DNA of 64,000 bases from a virus (Duplodnaviria > Heunggongvirae > Uroviricota > Caudoviricetes): positions 18,026 to 82,025 of IMG/VR virus record IMGVR_UViG_2778261533_000001; one strand, 5' to 3'. Positions within the stretch are counted from its first letter, which is position 1. Each line of letters opens with the position of its first letter. The notes beneath the pieces were generated by a model. It saw only the letters and a list, made by a program, of their open reading frames with translations. It had not been told where the DNA came from and searched no databases. The translations under genes and the position numbers were made by a program. This document shows positions 1 through 51,738 of this stretch, one piece after another.

Positions 1-132
1 ATTGAAAATGTAAAAAAACAAATTGCCATCACTCGCGAAGAGAAAAAGGTTAAGTCAGCCGCATCAGTTACGCGCAGCCGTAAAACCAAGAAGGGGCAGC
101 CAGTAAACGACAACCCCGAAAGCGCGCAATAA
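1..132 (+). CDS. c1: C1 repressor of lysogeny, 3' end (partial, begins upstream of window)
   Basis: Frame-1 translation from nt 1 gives IENVKKQIAITREEKKVKSAASVTRSRKTKKGQPVNDNPESAQ then stop, matching the remembered C-terminus of P1 C1; consistent with the C1 operator-like sites scattered through the window. Confidence 0.85.
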   Translation: MENVKKQIAITREEKKVKSAASVTRSRKTKKGQPVNDNPESAQ

Positions 133-164
133 ATTATGCCCGGCATCAACCGGGCATTCTTCCA

Positions 165-1280
165 TTATTCAGCCGCCACCGGTTTTAACAAACCAGCATC
201 AAGTAGCTTGCGAGTTAACCACTGCTGGCCTTTACCCGTTAATTGAGGCGTCAACCGTATCTGGTAGCCATCTTCATCATCCAGCACCACTTCTTTCACC
301 GTGAAATACCCGGCGTTGATGTATTGCTGGAACGGCACATTTTTACGTCCGCCGGACGCAATCAGGATGCCGTTCTCCCGTAACCAGGCAAACAGCGCGT
401 TTTGCTTAAGTCCAACAACCTTTGCAAAATTTCCAATCAGGATCCCCTTGGCCACTGATACCCGGTCGGCAAAATCGACCTTAGGGGCGGCGGCCACCAG
501 CTGCTGATTTAGCTGGTGGGCTTTCTGTTCCAGAAGTTGCTTTTGTTCAGCCAGTTCGGCAGCCAGGCGCAGAGCTTCAGGAAGCGTCTGGGGGATTGTG
601 ACCGGTTGCTGTTCTTTTTGTCGGAAGTAGCTGTCTTCCAGTTTTTCAAAGAATGCCCATGCCTGATCAGTTTCGAGCATTTTAGCGTGACGGGCAGCGC
701 CGCGTTCTGTCCAGAGAGTGAGTGAGCGGGCTTTGGGTGAGACTGGATTTTGTGAGTAGTTTAAAGCTACCCGCAAATTTTTCAGCTCATCGCCAATAAC
801 CTTGAAAAAGTGCTTCCCTTCAACAAAGCGCACTTTGTTCTCATGATGATTCTGGCGAATACGGATTGTTTCTGTCCCATACCCTTTTGCAAGAGTCTCG
901 GTTGTCACTACACGCATCCCCTGCCACTCCAGAACGGGAATTTCATCCGGCTGATTTTGAGCAACCACCAGCTCCGATTTCTGAACTGAAGTTGCATGAA
1001 TTTTTTCTGATTTAACGTTAGTTGCTTTCATTCTGTGTGCCTCCTTGCGTGCTTCGGCTGCGATGGTTGCGTAATTCAGATGCCCCTGTTCGAGCAGGTA
1101 TTCGCGGATATCAGACAACAGGATACGGTGAACCGCGTTCTTGTCCTTTCTCCGGTAAAGTTGTTTGGTGATCATGAAGTAGTTGGCAATAACGCCTGGT
1201 ATATCTCTGGTGCTGATACAGGCAGTGTGCTGTTCAATTGCCTCAATCATTTCTTCACGGGTGACTAATGACGTTCTCAT
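165..1280 (-). CDS. Antirepressor-like protein (Ant/KilA C-terminal domain family), second copy
   Basis: 371-aa ORF; N- and C-terminal regions nearly identical to the 469-aa Ant at 49780..51189 (C-terminal ~180 aa shared, ending LTGKGQQWLTRKLLDAGLLKPV); start overlaps stop of upstream icd-like ORF. Confidence 0.6.
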   Translation of the reverse strand: MRTSLVTREEMIEAIEQHTACISTRDIPGVIANYFMITKQLYRRKDKNAVHRILLSDIREYLLEQGHLNYATIAAEARKEAHRMKATNVKSEKIHATSVQKSELVVAQNQPDEIPVLEWQGMRVVTTETLAKGYGTETIRIRQNHHENKVRFVEGKHFFKVIGDELKNLRVALNYSQNPVSPKARSLTLWTERGAARHAKMLETDQAWAFFEKLEDSYFRQKEQQPVTIPQTLPEALRLAAELAEQKQLLEQKAHQLNQQLVAAAPKVDFADRVSVAKGILIGNFAKVVGLKQNALFAWLRENGILIASGGRKNVPFQQYINAGYFTVKEVVLDDEDGYQIRLTPQLTGKGQQWLTRKLLDAGLLKPVAAE

Positions 1281-1498
1281 ACTCCCTCCTGAGCAGAAGC
1301 GTTAACAGGGAGGCACCAGTAACTGAGAGAATTGCGCGAATCAGTAGAAAAACGGGCGGAGAAAATGCAAGGTGCATCAGGAAGCTGAGGGCGAGCCTCA
1401 TCTTCTGTCGGTGCAATAACGAAGTGATAGTGACGTTTCTGGCAGGAATAAAAGCGCCAGATAAATTCAGGGTGAGTTGGGGTAGGGATAGTAGCCAT
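1277..1498 (-). CDS. Icd-like small protein (second copy)
   Basis: 73 aa, paralog of the Icd at 51186..51407 (shared EFIWRFYSC.K.HYHFVIA.TEDEAR.QLPD.PCIF.ARFST.SRNSLSYW); RBS AAGGAGG upstream; overlaps ant-like start. Confidence 0.6.
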   Translation of the reverse strand: MATIPTPTHPEFIWRFYSCQKRHYHFVIAPTEDEARPQLPDAPCIFSARFSTDSRNSLSYWCLPVNASAQEGV

Positions 1499-1837
1499 AA
1501 TGGCAGCCTCCTTTTGCTAACTTAAGGAGCTACCGCGTGAGGTTCCAATCTCAATGGCGGTAGCACTGACTGGGTTGGAACTACCGGCGCAAAAGGGAAC
1601 CGGCCTGCCTTTCGGCAGCCCAGCCAGCACTACCATTGATCTCGGAGCTATGTGCTACGTATGGCTGTGCGATGGCATGACACAAAAAAAGACGCTTTTG
1701 GCGTCTGTGTCGCCTTTTGCATTATCCGGGGTTCCAATCCCGGCACCCGTTTTAATGAGGTGCCTGATAAGCATAAACCGAAAATGCCTCAAGGCGCAAG
1801 AGGTCAGGTTCAATGTAACATCGGTAGTTAAAAAACA

Positions 1838-1854
1838 CAATTTATTAGAGCAAA
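1838..1854 (-). promoter_or_regulatory. C1 operator-like site (15/17 to ATTGCTCTAATAAATTT) upstream of the second icd-ant module
   Basis: Sequence aatttattagagcaa on plus strand, the reverse complement of the P1 C1 operator consensus. Confidence 0.55.
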
Positions 1855-1857
1855 TAT

Positions 1858-3342
1858 TCATTCATTAAGCCATGCCAGAGCTTCATCAACCTGCGCTTCG
1901 TCTTCGACGCTAAGCACTTCATCCTGGGGAACATAATCCGCCAGCATAGCGAAACAATATGTATCCCAATGGTCTGGTGAGTGCAGGTTGAGTTTTTTCT
2001 TCATATCCTCCTTACTCATCACCTTCCATTGACCTGCGGAGTTAATCCCTACAGGGATTTTCGACGCTTCCTCAATAGTTTCATTACCCTTATCCAGTCT
2101 CATACGACCAGATTTTACGGCCTCTGCGGCTTGAACGTTGGCATAAGCACGTTTATCAAAGTACAGGCTCTTATCTTCACGGCTATGCATCTTTTTACCC
2201 CAGCGTATACGCTGTACGGTAATACCATAATACTCGTACATCAGATCCGCCGTTGCTTTACCCAGGCCATCGCCGTCTATCGCTATGGTGATATTTGGGA
2301 ATCGCTCAGGATTGCATTCTGCAAAAATTTTGGCGGCAAGCTGCGTTTCTGTAACGTCTGTGTATTCCAGCATTCGATAGTTGATTACACGGCGTTTATT
2401 TCGCTGGCCGGACACCATCATGATATTGATAACGGACTTATCCCGTCCCGTACCACCAGCAACGTCCACACATGCAAGCCAGCCCCATCCTTTGGCAATC
2501 TTGACTTTCCGCCGCGTTGCACGTTCAACCTCATCACGTCCAAGAAGGAAGCCATCCTGTGATTTAGGGAATAGGCCGCGTACCTTAATCATGTACATAG
2601 GGTTATCACGCCCGCCGTACTCCGCCAACTTCATTTTGATAAATGCTGGCGTTACCAGCGGTGATTCCTCACTGTTAAGCGTGATCGCCGTATAAACGCC
2701 ATCAGGGTTACCAGGACGCTTGGCCAGTTTATGGTGTGTATCGTAGAAATAGCCGCTTGGGCGTGTAGGCTGTGACAGTAATAAGATGCGGTTATCCTGT
2801 CCGGTAAGAGCACCGGTGATGATACCGAAAGCTCTATCACTGACACCGGAGGCTTCATCGATAATATACAGAAGATGATCTGCGTGTTCACCGGCGAGAG
2901 CTTCTTCACTTCCCAGACGAAAGCCCTTCGGTACTACAGTCCATACACCTTTACCAGTAACCTCATAGAAAGCGGTTTCTGTCAGAACAAAATAATCAGC
3001 AAGCCATGGGAAACGGCTGGTGGCAGTAGCCCAGTTTATCTTGATGTACTTGAATATACCGGTCATTACCTGCTGAATTTTGTTCGCAACGATAATGGCG
3101 CGGGCACCGGGATACATGATTATGAACAACATGATCATGATAGAAGTCATGTCTGATTTCCCGGTACCGTGACCAGACGAAACAGATGTCTTGCTACCCT
3201 GTTCCTGCACAGACTCAATAATCAGATCCTGCTGCCAGGTAGGTGTTTTGCCGAACAAAACATCAGCGGCCGCAATCCAGTCATAACGATATAGCGCCAC
3301 CAGCTCGCGCCAACGTGGATCCGTTACGCAACTTCTGGACAT
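1858..3342 (-). CDS. pacB: Terminase large subunit / packaging protein PacB
   Basis: 494 aa, same length and position as P1 PacB; immediately downstream of pacA with overlapping start/stop; Walker-like GHGTGKSD motif. Confidence 0.88.
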
Positions 3343-49779: not shown

Positions 49780-51189
49780 TTAACCTATTGCTACTGGTTT
49801 TAACAAACCAGCATCAAGTAGCTTGCGAGTTAACCACTGCTGGCCTTTACCCGTTAATTGGGGCGTCAGCCGTATCTGGTAGCCATTTTCATCATCCAGT
49901 ACCACTTCTTTCACCGTGAAATACCCGGCGTTGATGTACTGTTGGCGCGGTACGTTTTTGCGCGCACCAAAAGCCATGAGAATGCCGTTCTGGCGCAACC
50001 ATGAGAAAAGGGCGTTTTGCTTAAGTCCAACGACCTTTGCAAAGTTCCCGATCAGGATTCCATTAGCCACTGATACCCGGTCGGCAAAATCGACTTTAGG
50101 GGCTGCGGCCACCAGCTGCTGATTTAGCTGGTGAGTTTTCTGTTCCAGTAGCTGCTTTTGTTCAGCCAGCTCGGCAGCCAGGCGCAGAGCTTCGGGAAGC
50201 GTCTGGGGGATTGCGACCGGTTGCTGTTCTTTTTGCCGGAAGTAGCTATCTTCCAGTTTTTCAAAGAATGCCCACGCTTGCTCTGTGTCTACGATCTTAG
50301 ACATGCGTGCCGCTCCGCGTTCGGTCCAGAGTATTAAGGATCTGGTCTTGGGGGAAATTTGCAACTCGCTAAAAGATAGTCGCAAACTTTTTATCTCATC
50401 TCCTTTGATTTTAAAGAAGTGTTTACCCTCTACAAATCGTTCTTCATTGCGATTGTAGTTCTGCTGAATACGAATAGGTGTAGTGCCATACCCTCTAGCA
50501 AGAGTCTCGGTTGTCACGACGCGTACTCCCTGCCATTCCAGAACGGGAATTTCATCAGGATGATTTTCAACATTTATAGGTTCCAATGCCTGAATCATGG
50601 TATGTAGCGAACGGCGGACCGCTTTTGACTCGCGCGCGGCAACTCGCAGGGCTTGTTTGTAGGTCATGGTTATGACAACCATAGGCGTACCGCCACCTGG
50701 CGGCACGGTTGCACTTTTTGTGTAACCGTCCTCACCTTCTAATTCGTCGAGTATTTTTTCGATGAATTTGTTGTTCCGAACCTCTGGTTCCCCACATAAC
50801 TTACGCGCTTCATTGACCATCTTTAACAGTGTCTGGCTGTCGATTGTGTCTCCAGTGTTGGAGATAACATTCACAGCTGGTGATGGCGTAGCTGAAGCAA
50901 CAGGTGCTGGTTTTTCAACATTCAAATTATTACCGGTCATTCTATGTGCCTCCTTTCTCATTTCTGCTGCCACTGTTGCGTAACGTAGACGTCCTTGTTC
51001 AATCAAATAGTCCCTGATCTCGGCTATCAGTAGCCTGTTGATCACAGCCTTATCTGTTCGGGTATAAAAACGCCTGGTTATCATGAAATAGTTGGCAATT
51101 GCGCCGGGGATCTCCCGTGTCGGCATACAGGTTGTATGCAGGGCGATCGCTTCGGCTATTTCATTACGGGTGACGAGAGGTTTTTTCAT
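49780..51189 (-). CDS. ant: Antirepressor Ant (Ant1-type)
   Basis: 469 aa directly downstream of icd with overlapping start/stop; C-terminal domain shared with KilA and the 371-aa paralog. Confidence 0.7.
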   Translation of the reverse strand: MKKPLVTRNEIAEAIALHTTCMPTREIPGAIANYFMITRRFYTRTDKAVINRLLIAEIRDYLIEQGRLRYATVAAEMRKEAHRMTGNNLNVEKPAPVASATPSPAVNVISNTGDTIDSQTLLKMVNEARKLCGEPEVRNNKFIEKILDELEGEDGYTKSATVPPGGGTPMVVITMTYKQALRVAARESKAVRRSLHTMIQALEPINVENHPDEIPVLEWQGVRVVTTETLARGYGTTPIRIQQNYNRNEERFVEGKHFFKIKGDEIKSLRLSFSELQISPKTRSLILWTERGAARMSKIVDTEQAWAFFEKLEDSYFRQKEQQPVAIPQTLPEALRLAAELAEQKQLLEQKTHQLNQQLVAAAPKVDFADRVSVANGILIGNFAKVVGLKQNALFSWLRQNGILMAFGARKNVPRQQYINAGYFTVKEVVLDDENGYQIRLTPQLTGKGQQWLTRKLLDAGLLKPVAIG

Positions 51190-51407
51190 AAATCCCCCTG
51201 AACGTCGGCAGAGAAGGGGAGGTTCCAGTAACTAAGTGAATTGCGCGAGTTAGTTGAAAAACGGGCAGTAAAAATGCAGGGGCCATCAGGCAATTGAGAG
51301 CGTGCTTCGTCTTCTGTTGCTGCGATGACGAAGTGATAGTGGTGTTTTTTACAGGAATAGAAACGCCAGATGAATTCTTGGCGTGCGCAAGGATTGGCAT
51401 TAACCAT
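51186..51407 (-). CDS. icd: Icd (interference with cell division) protein
   Basis: 73-aa ORF immediately upstream of and overlapping ant; matches the P1 icd-ant arrangement. Confidence 0.7.
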   Translation of the reverse strand: MVNANPCARQEFIWRFYSCKKHHYHFVIAATEDEARSQLPDGPCIFTARFSTNSRNSLSYWNLPFSADVQGDL

Positions 51408-51721
51408 AGTTACGGCCTCACAATCAGGTTTAACAACCTGCTACCCGCTGCTAAACAGGTGGCAGGACGTGACGGGGTTAGCAGACTGGCGATTGTGAAA
51501 CCAGCAGGCCGAAGCCTCCCCATCACGCCCCACCATAATTTGGGCGTAACGCGGTTTTACGGACACAAAAATACCGCAATATCGGATATCTGCGGCTGTC
51601 CGCACAATCATTCAGGCTGCTAAACCCGGTCGCAGAATTTGCTACGACGGCGAAACTATAAGCCTGAACGATTAAAAGGTCAATATGATGCGAAAAGATA
51701 GCATTCACGACTTAAAAATAC
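51408..51721 (-). ncRNA. c4-type antisense RNA and leader region of the immunity I operon (boundaries approximate)
   Basis: Untranslated about 300-nt leader between C1 operator (51722..51738) and icd; P1 encodes the c4 antisense RNA here; exact RNA ends not determinable by eye. Confidence 0.35.
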
Positions 51722-51738
51722 AAATTTATTAGAGCATT
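51722..51738 (-). promoter_or_regulatory. C1 operator-like site (16/17) upstream of the c4-icd-ant operon
   Basis: aaatttattagagcatt. Confidence 0.6.

Follow-up and report, generated by a model that had tools for sequence, protein, structure and literature searches.

We analyzed a 64,000-nucleotide (nt) stretch of a P1-like phage-plasmid (IMG/VR record IMGVR_UViG_2778261533_000001, positions 18,026 to 82,025; hereafter the window, to whose coordinates we refer throughout) and found, on the minus strand between the terminase subunit gene pacB and the C1 repressor gene c1, a second c4-icd-ant immunity (immI) module at 133..1857. From sequence comparison we judge, with a probability of roughly 0.72, that this insert is a complete, selectively maintained and functional second immI cassette that is controlled by C1 and orthogonal to the canonical immI operon of the same genome. 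P1 immunity is a tripartite system that was worked out on P1 and P7, each of which has a single immI module.

The spacing between the stop codons of c1 and pacB is 1725 bp in the window (133..1857), compared to 24 bp in P1, where pacB ends at 93206 and c1 at 93231. Alignment of the two junctions revealed that the P1 spacer has been swapped for the insert exactly, from stop codon to stop codon. An earlier note, made from the sequence alone, had described pacB and c1 as nearly adjacent in P1 and had regarded the module as an acquisition; this agrees with the empty junction seen in P1 and P7, and also in phiW39 and SJ46. Insertion mediated by an insertion sequence (IS) or transposon was considered and rejected, as the junction displays no target duplication and no IS ends.

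Anatomy of the junction cassette

The elements of the cassette, all on the minus strand, are given below in the order of transcription. Sites are named as in the P1 record, where the 5' site is called a and the 3' site, located at the icd ribosome-binding site, is called b; a' and b' are the matching segments of the C4 RNA. Lengths of proteins and open reading frames (ORFs) are in amino acids (aa).

1838..1854, minus strand: C1 operator, reading TTTGCTCTAATAAATTG, with 2 mismatches to the consensus ATTGCTCTAATAAATTT
1812..1840, minus strand: predicted C1-repressible promoter, TTGTGT (1835..1840), 17-nt spacer, TACATT (1812..1817)
1770..1799, minus strand: predicted constitutive promoter, TTGCGC (1794..1799), 18-nt spacer, TATGCT (1770..1775), read by eye
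1685..1763, minus strand: isrK-type leader RNA (Rfam RF01394, 62.4 bits against a gathering score of 50, model positions 1-77)
1731..1737, minus strand: a1, exact complement of a', in a hairpin loop
1713..1720, minus strand: b1, exact complement of b'
1553..1640, minus strand: C4 antisense RNA (Rfam RF01695, 76.7 bits against a gathering score of 45, E = 3e-13, full-length model 1-87)
1517..1636, minus strand: 39-aa ORF inside the C4 RNA/a2 region (Pfam Phage_ASH, PF10554, 32.4 bits)
1542..1548, minus strand: a2, UUGGAAC, exact complement of a' GUUCCAA
1510..1517 (feature span 1507..1517), minus strand: b2, GCAAAAGG, exact complement of b' CCUUUUGC
1277..1498, minus strand: icd paralog, 73 aa (NCBIfam NF033153, phage_ICD_like, 47.1 bits against a cutoff of 25)
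165..1280, minus strand: ant paralog (Ant1-like), 371 aa, with ORF6N and ANT/KilAC Pfam domains
165..1031, minus strand: predicted in-frame Ant2-like product, 288 aa, starting at codon 84 with a Shine-Dalgarno (SD) sequence and ATG

The matches to C4, isrK, Icd, Ant and the operator bear out the earlier proposal of a second c4-icd-ant module at this junction, including its C1 operator-like site, its 73-aa and 371-aa paralogs with overlapping start and stop, and its leader of about 340 nt. The window as a whole has 11 C1-operator-like sites with at most 3 mismatches, where 0.41 would be expected, and this count was not attained in any of 100 shuffles. The -35 hexamer of the putative upstream promoter overlaps the operator, an assignment made by alignment to P1, in which the counterpart P2c4 (formerly P51a) has its -35 overlapping Op51. 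For the putative downstream promoter, both the position and the -35 hexamer are conserved in an alignment with phage D6, and the motif TTGCGCC...TATnnT was present in all 23 junction loci recognised by an exact-string test. Transcription from it is predicted to start near 1763, which is also where the isrK model begins.

The leader (1499..1837) is 339 nt long and contains the direct repeat noticed earlier, GATTGGAACC, at 1541..1550 and 1730..1739 and nowhere else within the 64 kb; the cores of the two copies are a2 and a1. The isrK element consists of two 5' hairpins, the loop of the second being the a1 site, followed by an intrinsic terminator with its stem at 1690..1706 and a U run; a sub-threshold match to the Rfam c4-a1b1 family (23 bits) lies at 1723..1776. 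The order in the cassette is an isrK leader, then a C4-family element, then an antirepressor gene.

What had been described as an internal near-complementary element proved to be a bona fide C4 RNA, with the long closing stem and the two internal hairpins typical of such RNAs. Its fold energy is -46.4 kcal/mol (z = -5.46), and none of 200 shuffled sequences folded as well. In P1-type modules C4 is released from its precursor by RNase P; the sequence here carries a 3' GCCA motif and a tRNA-like stem. The b' segment CCUUUUGC (1589..1596) forms a hairpin loop and a' GUUCCAA (1575..1581) is single-stranded. Checking the fold and the complementarity to the icd ribosome-binding site, as the earlier note had proposed, gave exact complements between c4 and its targets, with b2 overlapping the icd SD sequence AAGGAGG (1507..1513). 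In the predicted fold, a1 and a2 each occupy an 8-nt hairpin loop, that of a2 being closed by the stem UGAG/CUCA, and the icd SD is paired in a hairpin with an upstream anti-SD, CUCCUU.

The 39-aa ORF that overlaps the C4 RNA is annotated as 'ash family protein' by the Prokaryotic Genome Annotation Pipeline in related plasmids (pNJS001-1). It corresponds in position and frame to orf45 of Gifsy-1 (34073..34210, minus strand, in our locus L079), with which it shares an AUGG start in the C4 stem, and its stop codon (UAG) falls at the start of b2, beside the hairpin that sequesters the icd SD. We regard this ORF as unlikely to be a gene in its own right. Much of the Ash 'protein family' may be the translation of a conserved RNA gene; alternatively, the 39-aa ORF could be a real leader peptide coupled to icd.

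The second Icd is 77% identical to P1 Icd and 76% identical to the canonical Icd of the window. Its stop codon overlaps the ant start as ATGA (1277..1280). In the second Ant, ORF6N spans residues 116-201 (E = 2.9e-20) and ANT/KilAC residues 259-360 (E = 4.4e-32); the protein is 78% identical to the canonical Ant of the window over residues 79-369 and 59% identical over the N-terminal 93 aa. The candidate internal start is preceded by AAGGAGG at 1040..1046, 8 nt upstream of the ATG at 1031..1029 (codon 84 of ant), and P1 ant2 also begins at codon 84 of ant1 (48937 versus 48688). Many junction cassettes have GTG in place of ATG as the icd start with its position unchanged (loci L016, L017, L033, L046 and L051).

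The canonical operon of the same genome comprises:

49780..51738, minus strand: canonical immI operon
51722..51738, minus strand: Op51-like operator
51609..51661, minus strand: c4-a1b1
51455..51540, minus strand: C4 RNA
51186..51407, minus strand: canonical icd
49780..51189, minus strand: canonical ant (469 aa)

In the canonical operon, c4 matches the 77-nt P7 c4 exactly, and the sites of this operon (a, UUAGCAG; b, GAUUGUG) have nothing in common with those of the second module (a, UUGGAAC; b, GCAAAAGG). We found no a or b site of either module in the leader of the other, and site-wise duplex energies favour the cognate targets. Since the recognition sites are unrelated and the site-wise energies agree, we predict that neither C4 RNA regulates the other module and that the two circuits are orthogonal, which upholds in silico the earlier suggestion of different specificities. 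Whole-molecule RNAduplex comparisons of each C4 with each leader yielded large energies whether or not the pair was cognate and were discarded as uninformative, because they ignore intramolecular structure. The canonical Ant has 469 aa and an ORF6N domain, compared to 347-348 aa in P1 and P7. In other P1-like contigs (L023 and L071), a nearly identical Ant (99%) goes together with a c4 of the isrK/D6 family, indicating that reassortment between c4 cassettes and ant genes takes place at the canonical locus too.

Covariation, distribution and relatives of the cassette

We compared 75 cassettes, comprising 71 IMG/VR loci retrieved by a pattern scan for this C4 sub-family together with RCS47, pNJS001-1, D6 and the window, and assigned their genomic context by tblastn. 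Only two a' alleles (GUUCCAA and GUCUCAA) and two b' alleles (CCUUUUGC and CCUUUGAC) occur among them, in all four combinations. In 73 of the 75, a1, b1, a2 and b2 are all exact complements of the cassette's own C4. Because the six sites alternate along the cassette as a1-b1-b'-a'-a2-b2, single crossovers cannot yield the four combinations, which implies selection for matched sets. By context, 36 cassettes lie at the pacB-c1 junction, 22 are D6-like, 10 lie upstream of kilA, in the position of the canonical immI, and 7 were left unassigned; all four haplotypes are present among the 36 junction cassettes. A C1 operator with at most 3 mismatches was found at the same distance in 36/36 junction cassettes and in 0/22 D6-like cassettes.

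The ratio of nonsynonymous to synonymous substitution rates (dN/dS) among junction alleles is 0.15 for ant and 0.11 for icd; by this measure both genes are under purifying selection. The ant reading frame is intact (370 or 371 aa) in 14 of the 17 junction loci with enough sequence.

The two cassettes with mismatched sites, L047 and L054, both resemble recombinants or chimeras between two modules. In L047 (IMG/VR contig 2778261639_000014), pacB is followed directly by the c4-icd-ant module and then by kilA, and a1 is mismatched to the cassette's own c4; the arrangement resembles recombination between two modules of the same orientation with deletion of the roughly 50 kb between them. The first 165 nt of L054 are identical to those of the cassette L037, and its a1 is mismatched to its own a', so that it looks chimeric. 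The identical 165-nt C4 segment of L037 and L054 suggests either gene conversion or assembly chimerism.

The insert is widespread. PLSDB contains 281 records with at least 80% of a 2-kb query in one place, and both flanks were covered in 40/40 of the PLSDB matches listed; a P1-type near-empty junction was seen in 314 of the 703 PLSDB records that match the junction probe. The same insert occupies the junction in the RefSeq Punavirus RCS47 (NC_042128; 92.8% identity, annotated 'ant'), in JL22 and in 673R5. In these three records neither a C4 RNA, an isrK leader nor an operator is annotated at the junction locus. It has been previously reported that two short hypothetical ORFs and ant are inserted between pacB and c1 (Venturini 2019, PMC6906374), and the D6-like plasmids have received a descriptive mention (PMC6799933). 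We found no functional study of the junction cassette in the literature, which offers descriptive mentions only (PMC6906374; PMC6799933). The rarity implied by the earlier note is therefore refuted by RCS47, JL22 and the 281 PLSDB plasmids, and with it the novelty of the insert; the identity of the module is not affected. Recognition of a full isrK-C4 circuit at the junction locus, with a reassorting two-site code common to D6-like elements, may be new.

Genomes with two modules recur (RCS47, JL22, 673R5 and D6). The junction and canonical specificities of the window and of the three P1-like genomes are as follows:

Window: junction a'/b' GUUCCAA / CCUUUUGC; canonical of P7 type
RCS47: junction a'/b' GUCUCAA / CCUUUGAC; canonical of P7 type
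JL22: junction a'/b' GUCUCAA / CCUUUUGC; canonical a hybrid, with P1 a' and P7 b'
673R5: junction with a more divergent C4; canonical with P7 a' and a novel b'

The junction C4 of vB_EcoM-673R5 (L085) scores 75.9 bits and has the b' region ACCUUGGAC and the a' GGCCAAC; no isrK match reached the gathering score at this locus. This C4 implies that there are more than four specificities at the pacB-c1 locus.

Judged by nucleotide similarity, the cassette is a mosaic. The part running from the putative constitutive promoter into icd resembles phage D6 (93.6% over 1436..1764 and 84% over a longer stretch), the approximately 60 nt upstream, with the operator and the predicted repressible promoter, resemble the P1 Op51 region, and ant is P1-like, with 82.7% nucleotide identity to the canonical ant of the window.

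The cassette matches the annotated order of P1, namely Op51, P2c4, P1c4, a1, b1, c4, a2, b2, icd and ant1/ant2. As in the P1 and P7 immI operons, a C1 operator overlaps the -35 of a predicted first promoter, and a second predicted promoter follows; the a and b sites occur twice, on either side of a C4 RNA, and the downstream b site lies at the ribosome-binding site of icd. Icd likewise has 73 aa, its stop overlaps the ant start as ATGA, the putative internal start is again at codon 84, and the C-terminus of Ant is KilAC. The cassette differs from these operons in its location at the pacB-c1 junction, in its unrelated recognition sequences and in its leader and C4, which belong to the isrK/D6 sub-family; nucleotide similarity to the P1/P7-type module was found only from icd onwards. 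In addition, the middle domain of its Ant is ORF6N, and the identity to P1 Ant1 is 55%. The insert of RCS47, JL22, pTZ20_1P and many IncY phage-plasmids has the same position, stop codon to stop codon, and the same gene order and operator at 92.8-96.4% nucleotide identity, although RCS47 and JL22 differ from the window in c4 haplotype.

In phage D6, the module at approximately 75 kb (orf83 icd and orf82 ant; L005) is 93.6% identical to the cassette over the leader, isrK, the terminator, C4, a2/b2 and the 5' part of icd, and has the same position of the putative constitutive promoter and the same b allele as the window. In contrast to the cassette, it has no C1 operator, a different a allele and an unrelated Ant (no BLASTP match). 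A second D6 module next to repL (L080, 20.7-21.2 kb) belongs to the P1/P7 c4 family; its a' is of P1 type, its b', CGTAAGT, is novel, and its target sites match. D6 thus carries both c4 sub-families, and each of its modules has a different Ant type.

In Gifsy-1, an isrK RNA (with an overlapping c4-a1b1 match) lies directly upstream of a C4-family RNA, which is followed by the antirepressor gene anrP, according to Rfam. This shared order of elements makes it the same kind of module as the cassette. Gifsy-1 also has a1/b1 sites, a leaky terminator, a C4-family RNA (the orf45 region) and an ATGA-coupled antirepressor start, but it lacks icd and a C1 operator and its context is lambdoid. In this system the short terminated IsrK supplied in trans raises anrP translation approximately 140-fold, and some transcripts pass the terminator (Hershko-Shalev et al. 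2016, PMC4825925). The published mechanism is trans-activation by a short RNA and not antisense repression by C4; among isrK-type leaders, such activation and Hfq binding are known only for Gifsy-1. The precedent supports a decoy (anti-antisense) role for the a1/b1 leader at 1685..1763.

Proposed mechanism and alternative explanations

If the cassette works as its architecture suggests, then in a lysogen C1 would shut the operator-proximal promoter, and the putative constitutive promoter would yield mostly the short terminated leader, with some read-through transcripts processed to C4. This C4 would pair through loop b' with b2, at the icd ribosome-binding site, and through its tail a' with a2, thereby blocking the translation of icd and, via coupling and polarity, the synthesis of Ant. 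When C1 is absent or inactivated, the extra transcription and the a1/b1 leader decoys would outrun C4, Icd and Ant would be made, and Ant would then inactivate C1. A prophage with both modules could silence in trans incoming relatives that carry either lock, and an infecting phage could escape in lysogens that are without either c4. The second module would in this way alter immunity and induction logic, as the earlier note had suggested.

Several observations weigh against a functional, orthogonal cassette under C1. P1-like plasmids without the insert are about as many as those with it, so the cassette is dispensable. A generic sigma-70 scan of the leader called no promoter, and both promoter calls therefore rest on alignment to the promoters annotated in P1 and to D6. 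The second Ant is just 55% identical to P1 Ant1, and its binding to C1 is a prediction. The dependence of ant on icd translation is assumed from P1, and the ant of the cassette has a good SD of its own (AGGAGG, 5 nt before the ATG). Furthermore, ant is shortened in 3 of the 17 junction loci. Finally, on contig 3300045988_157941 the junction cassette L037 and L054, which has a canonical-side context, have the same a'/b' haplotype; if L054 is genuine, the two loci are not orthogonal in every genome.

In other readings the insert has another role or none. That it is a neutral or decaying hitch-hiker, derived from illegitimate recombination with a D6-like element and without current function, would accord with its absence from P1, P7 and roughly half of P1-like plasmids, with the shortened ant copies and with inter-module recombinants such as L047. 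We consider this very improbable in view of the low dN/dS values (0.11-0.15), the operator kept in 36/36 junction copies, the exact compensatory changes over three to four separated sites in 73/75 cassettes and the presence of the insert in 281 PLSDB records. Somewhat less improbable, although still quite unlikely, is that the second Ant acts not on its own C1 but on another repressor, from co-resident D6-like or other phage-plasmids, or on a host factor, which would make the cassette a device for inter-element warfare or cross-talk. The 93.6% identity of the regulatory RNA part to the D6 immI, the c4 haplotypes common to the D6-like and P1-like pools, the low identity to P1 Ant1 and the different ORF6N middle domain all speak for such a target. 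However, over residues 79-369 this Ant is 78% identical to the canonical Ant of its own genome and displays no detectable similarity to the D6 Ant proteins, and the C1 operator is found in every junction copy and in none of the D6 copies, which ties expression of the cassette to C1 status.

The strongest competitor, which we nevertheless regard as unlikely, is that the leader at 1685..1763 is the key trans regulator, a positive switch of the IsrK type that pairs with the read-through C4 region or sponges C4. Under particular stresses it would turn on the C4-overlapping ORF, icd and ant, and the cassette would be an induction trigger or host-physiology module, and not a determinant of immunity specificity. 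The above-threshold isrK match is what such a switch would predict, as is the order shared with Gifsy-1, where orf45, lying over C4, is experimentally translated and IsrK in trans raises anrP translation approximately 140-fold (PMC4825925); the equivalent 39-aa ORF of the window likewise ends at the start of b2, beside the icd-SD hairpin. Yet a1/b1 decoys are annotated in P1 also, and the switch is compatible with an immI function. The diversification of a and b alleles with exact matching fits selection for trans-specificity, of which a switch acting only in cis has no need, and the cassette has both icd and a C1 operator, which Gifsy-1 lacks. The IsrK mechanism is thus more likely complementary to the immI function than a rival of it.

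On the immI interpretation, two antirepressors are tied to one C1, each under its own antisense-RNA lock, and the lock added by the cassette is orthogonal to the other; PLSDB records with the cassette are nearly as numerous as those with the P1-type junction. If the cassette is functional, as is probable, the heteroimmunity of phage-plasmids that carry antimicrobial resistance would be set by a pair of RNA specificities and not by one, with a bearing on which elements coexist, get induced or displace each other. A bolder proposal, which we put forward tentatively and rather doubt, is that a modular RNA 'immunity code' of two sites is common to P1-like and D6-like phage-plasmids, with two c4 locks per genome drawn from two c4 sub-families with reassorting a/b alleles (in the window, P7-type plus UUGGAAC/GCAAAAGG). 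The haplotype pair would then set superinfection, co-residence and induction between phage-plasmids, also across the P1/D6 boundary, and in natural P1-like populations it would be chiefly the junction cassette that shapes the heteroimmunity groups. The interleaved a/b alleles, which co-vary exactly, provide orthogonal antisense/target pairs of natural origin. In practice the gain is mostly for annotation, as the C4 gene is labelled 'ash family protein' in the one RefSeq plasmid checked.

Flanking genes and minor features

The neighbours of the cassette and a predicted terminator are:

1..132, plus strand: 3' end of c1 (C1 repressor), left flank; RCS47 and pNJS001-1 annotate C1 here
136..157: GC-rich hairpin where c1 and ant converge, 9 pairs of which 6 are G-C (terminator scan)
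1858..3342, minus strand: pacB (terminase subunit), right flank, from the ORF list and the RCS47 and P1 annotation

The C-terminal 43 aa of C1 are 98-100% identical in the P1-like loci where the left flank was recovered. The hairpin at 136..157 lies 3 nt past the c1 stop and 7 nt past the ant stop and is probably a bidirectional terminator. On the other side of the cassette, the C1 operator starts 3 nt past the pacB stop, with no terminator between them, so that late pacAB transcription could read into the cassette; pacA, like pacB, is on the minus strand. With such read-through, the hairpin would protect c1 from antisense transcription. A plus-strand ORF of 104 aa (1554..1868), antisense to C4 and isrK, has no family match and was treated as spurious. 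Elsewhere in the window there are three tRNA genes, at 26766..26838, 28483..28555 and 28561..28633 (minus strand).

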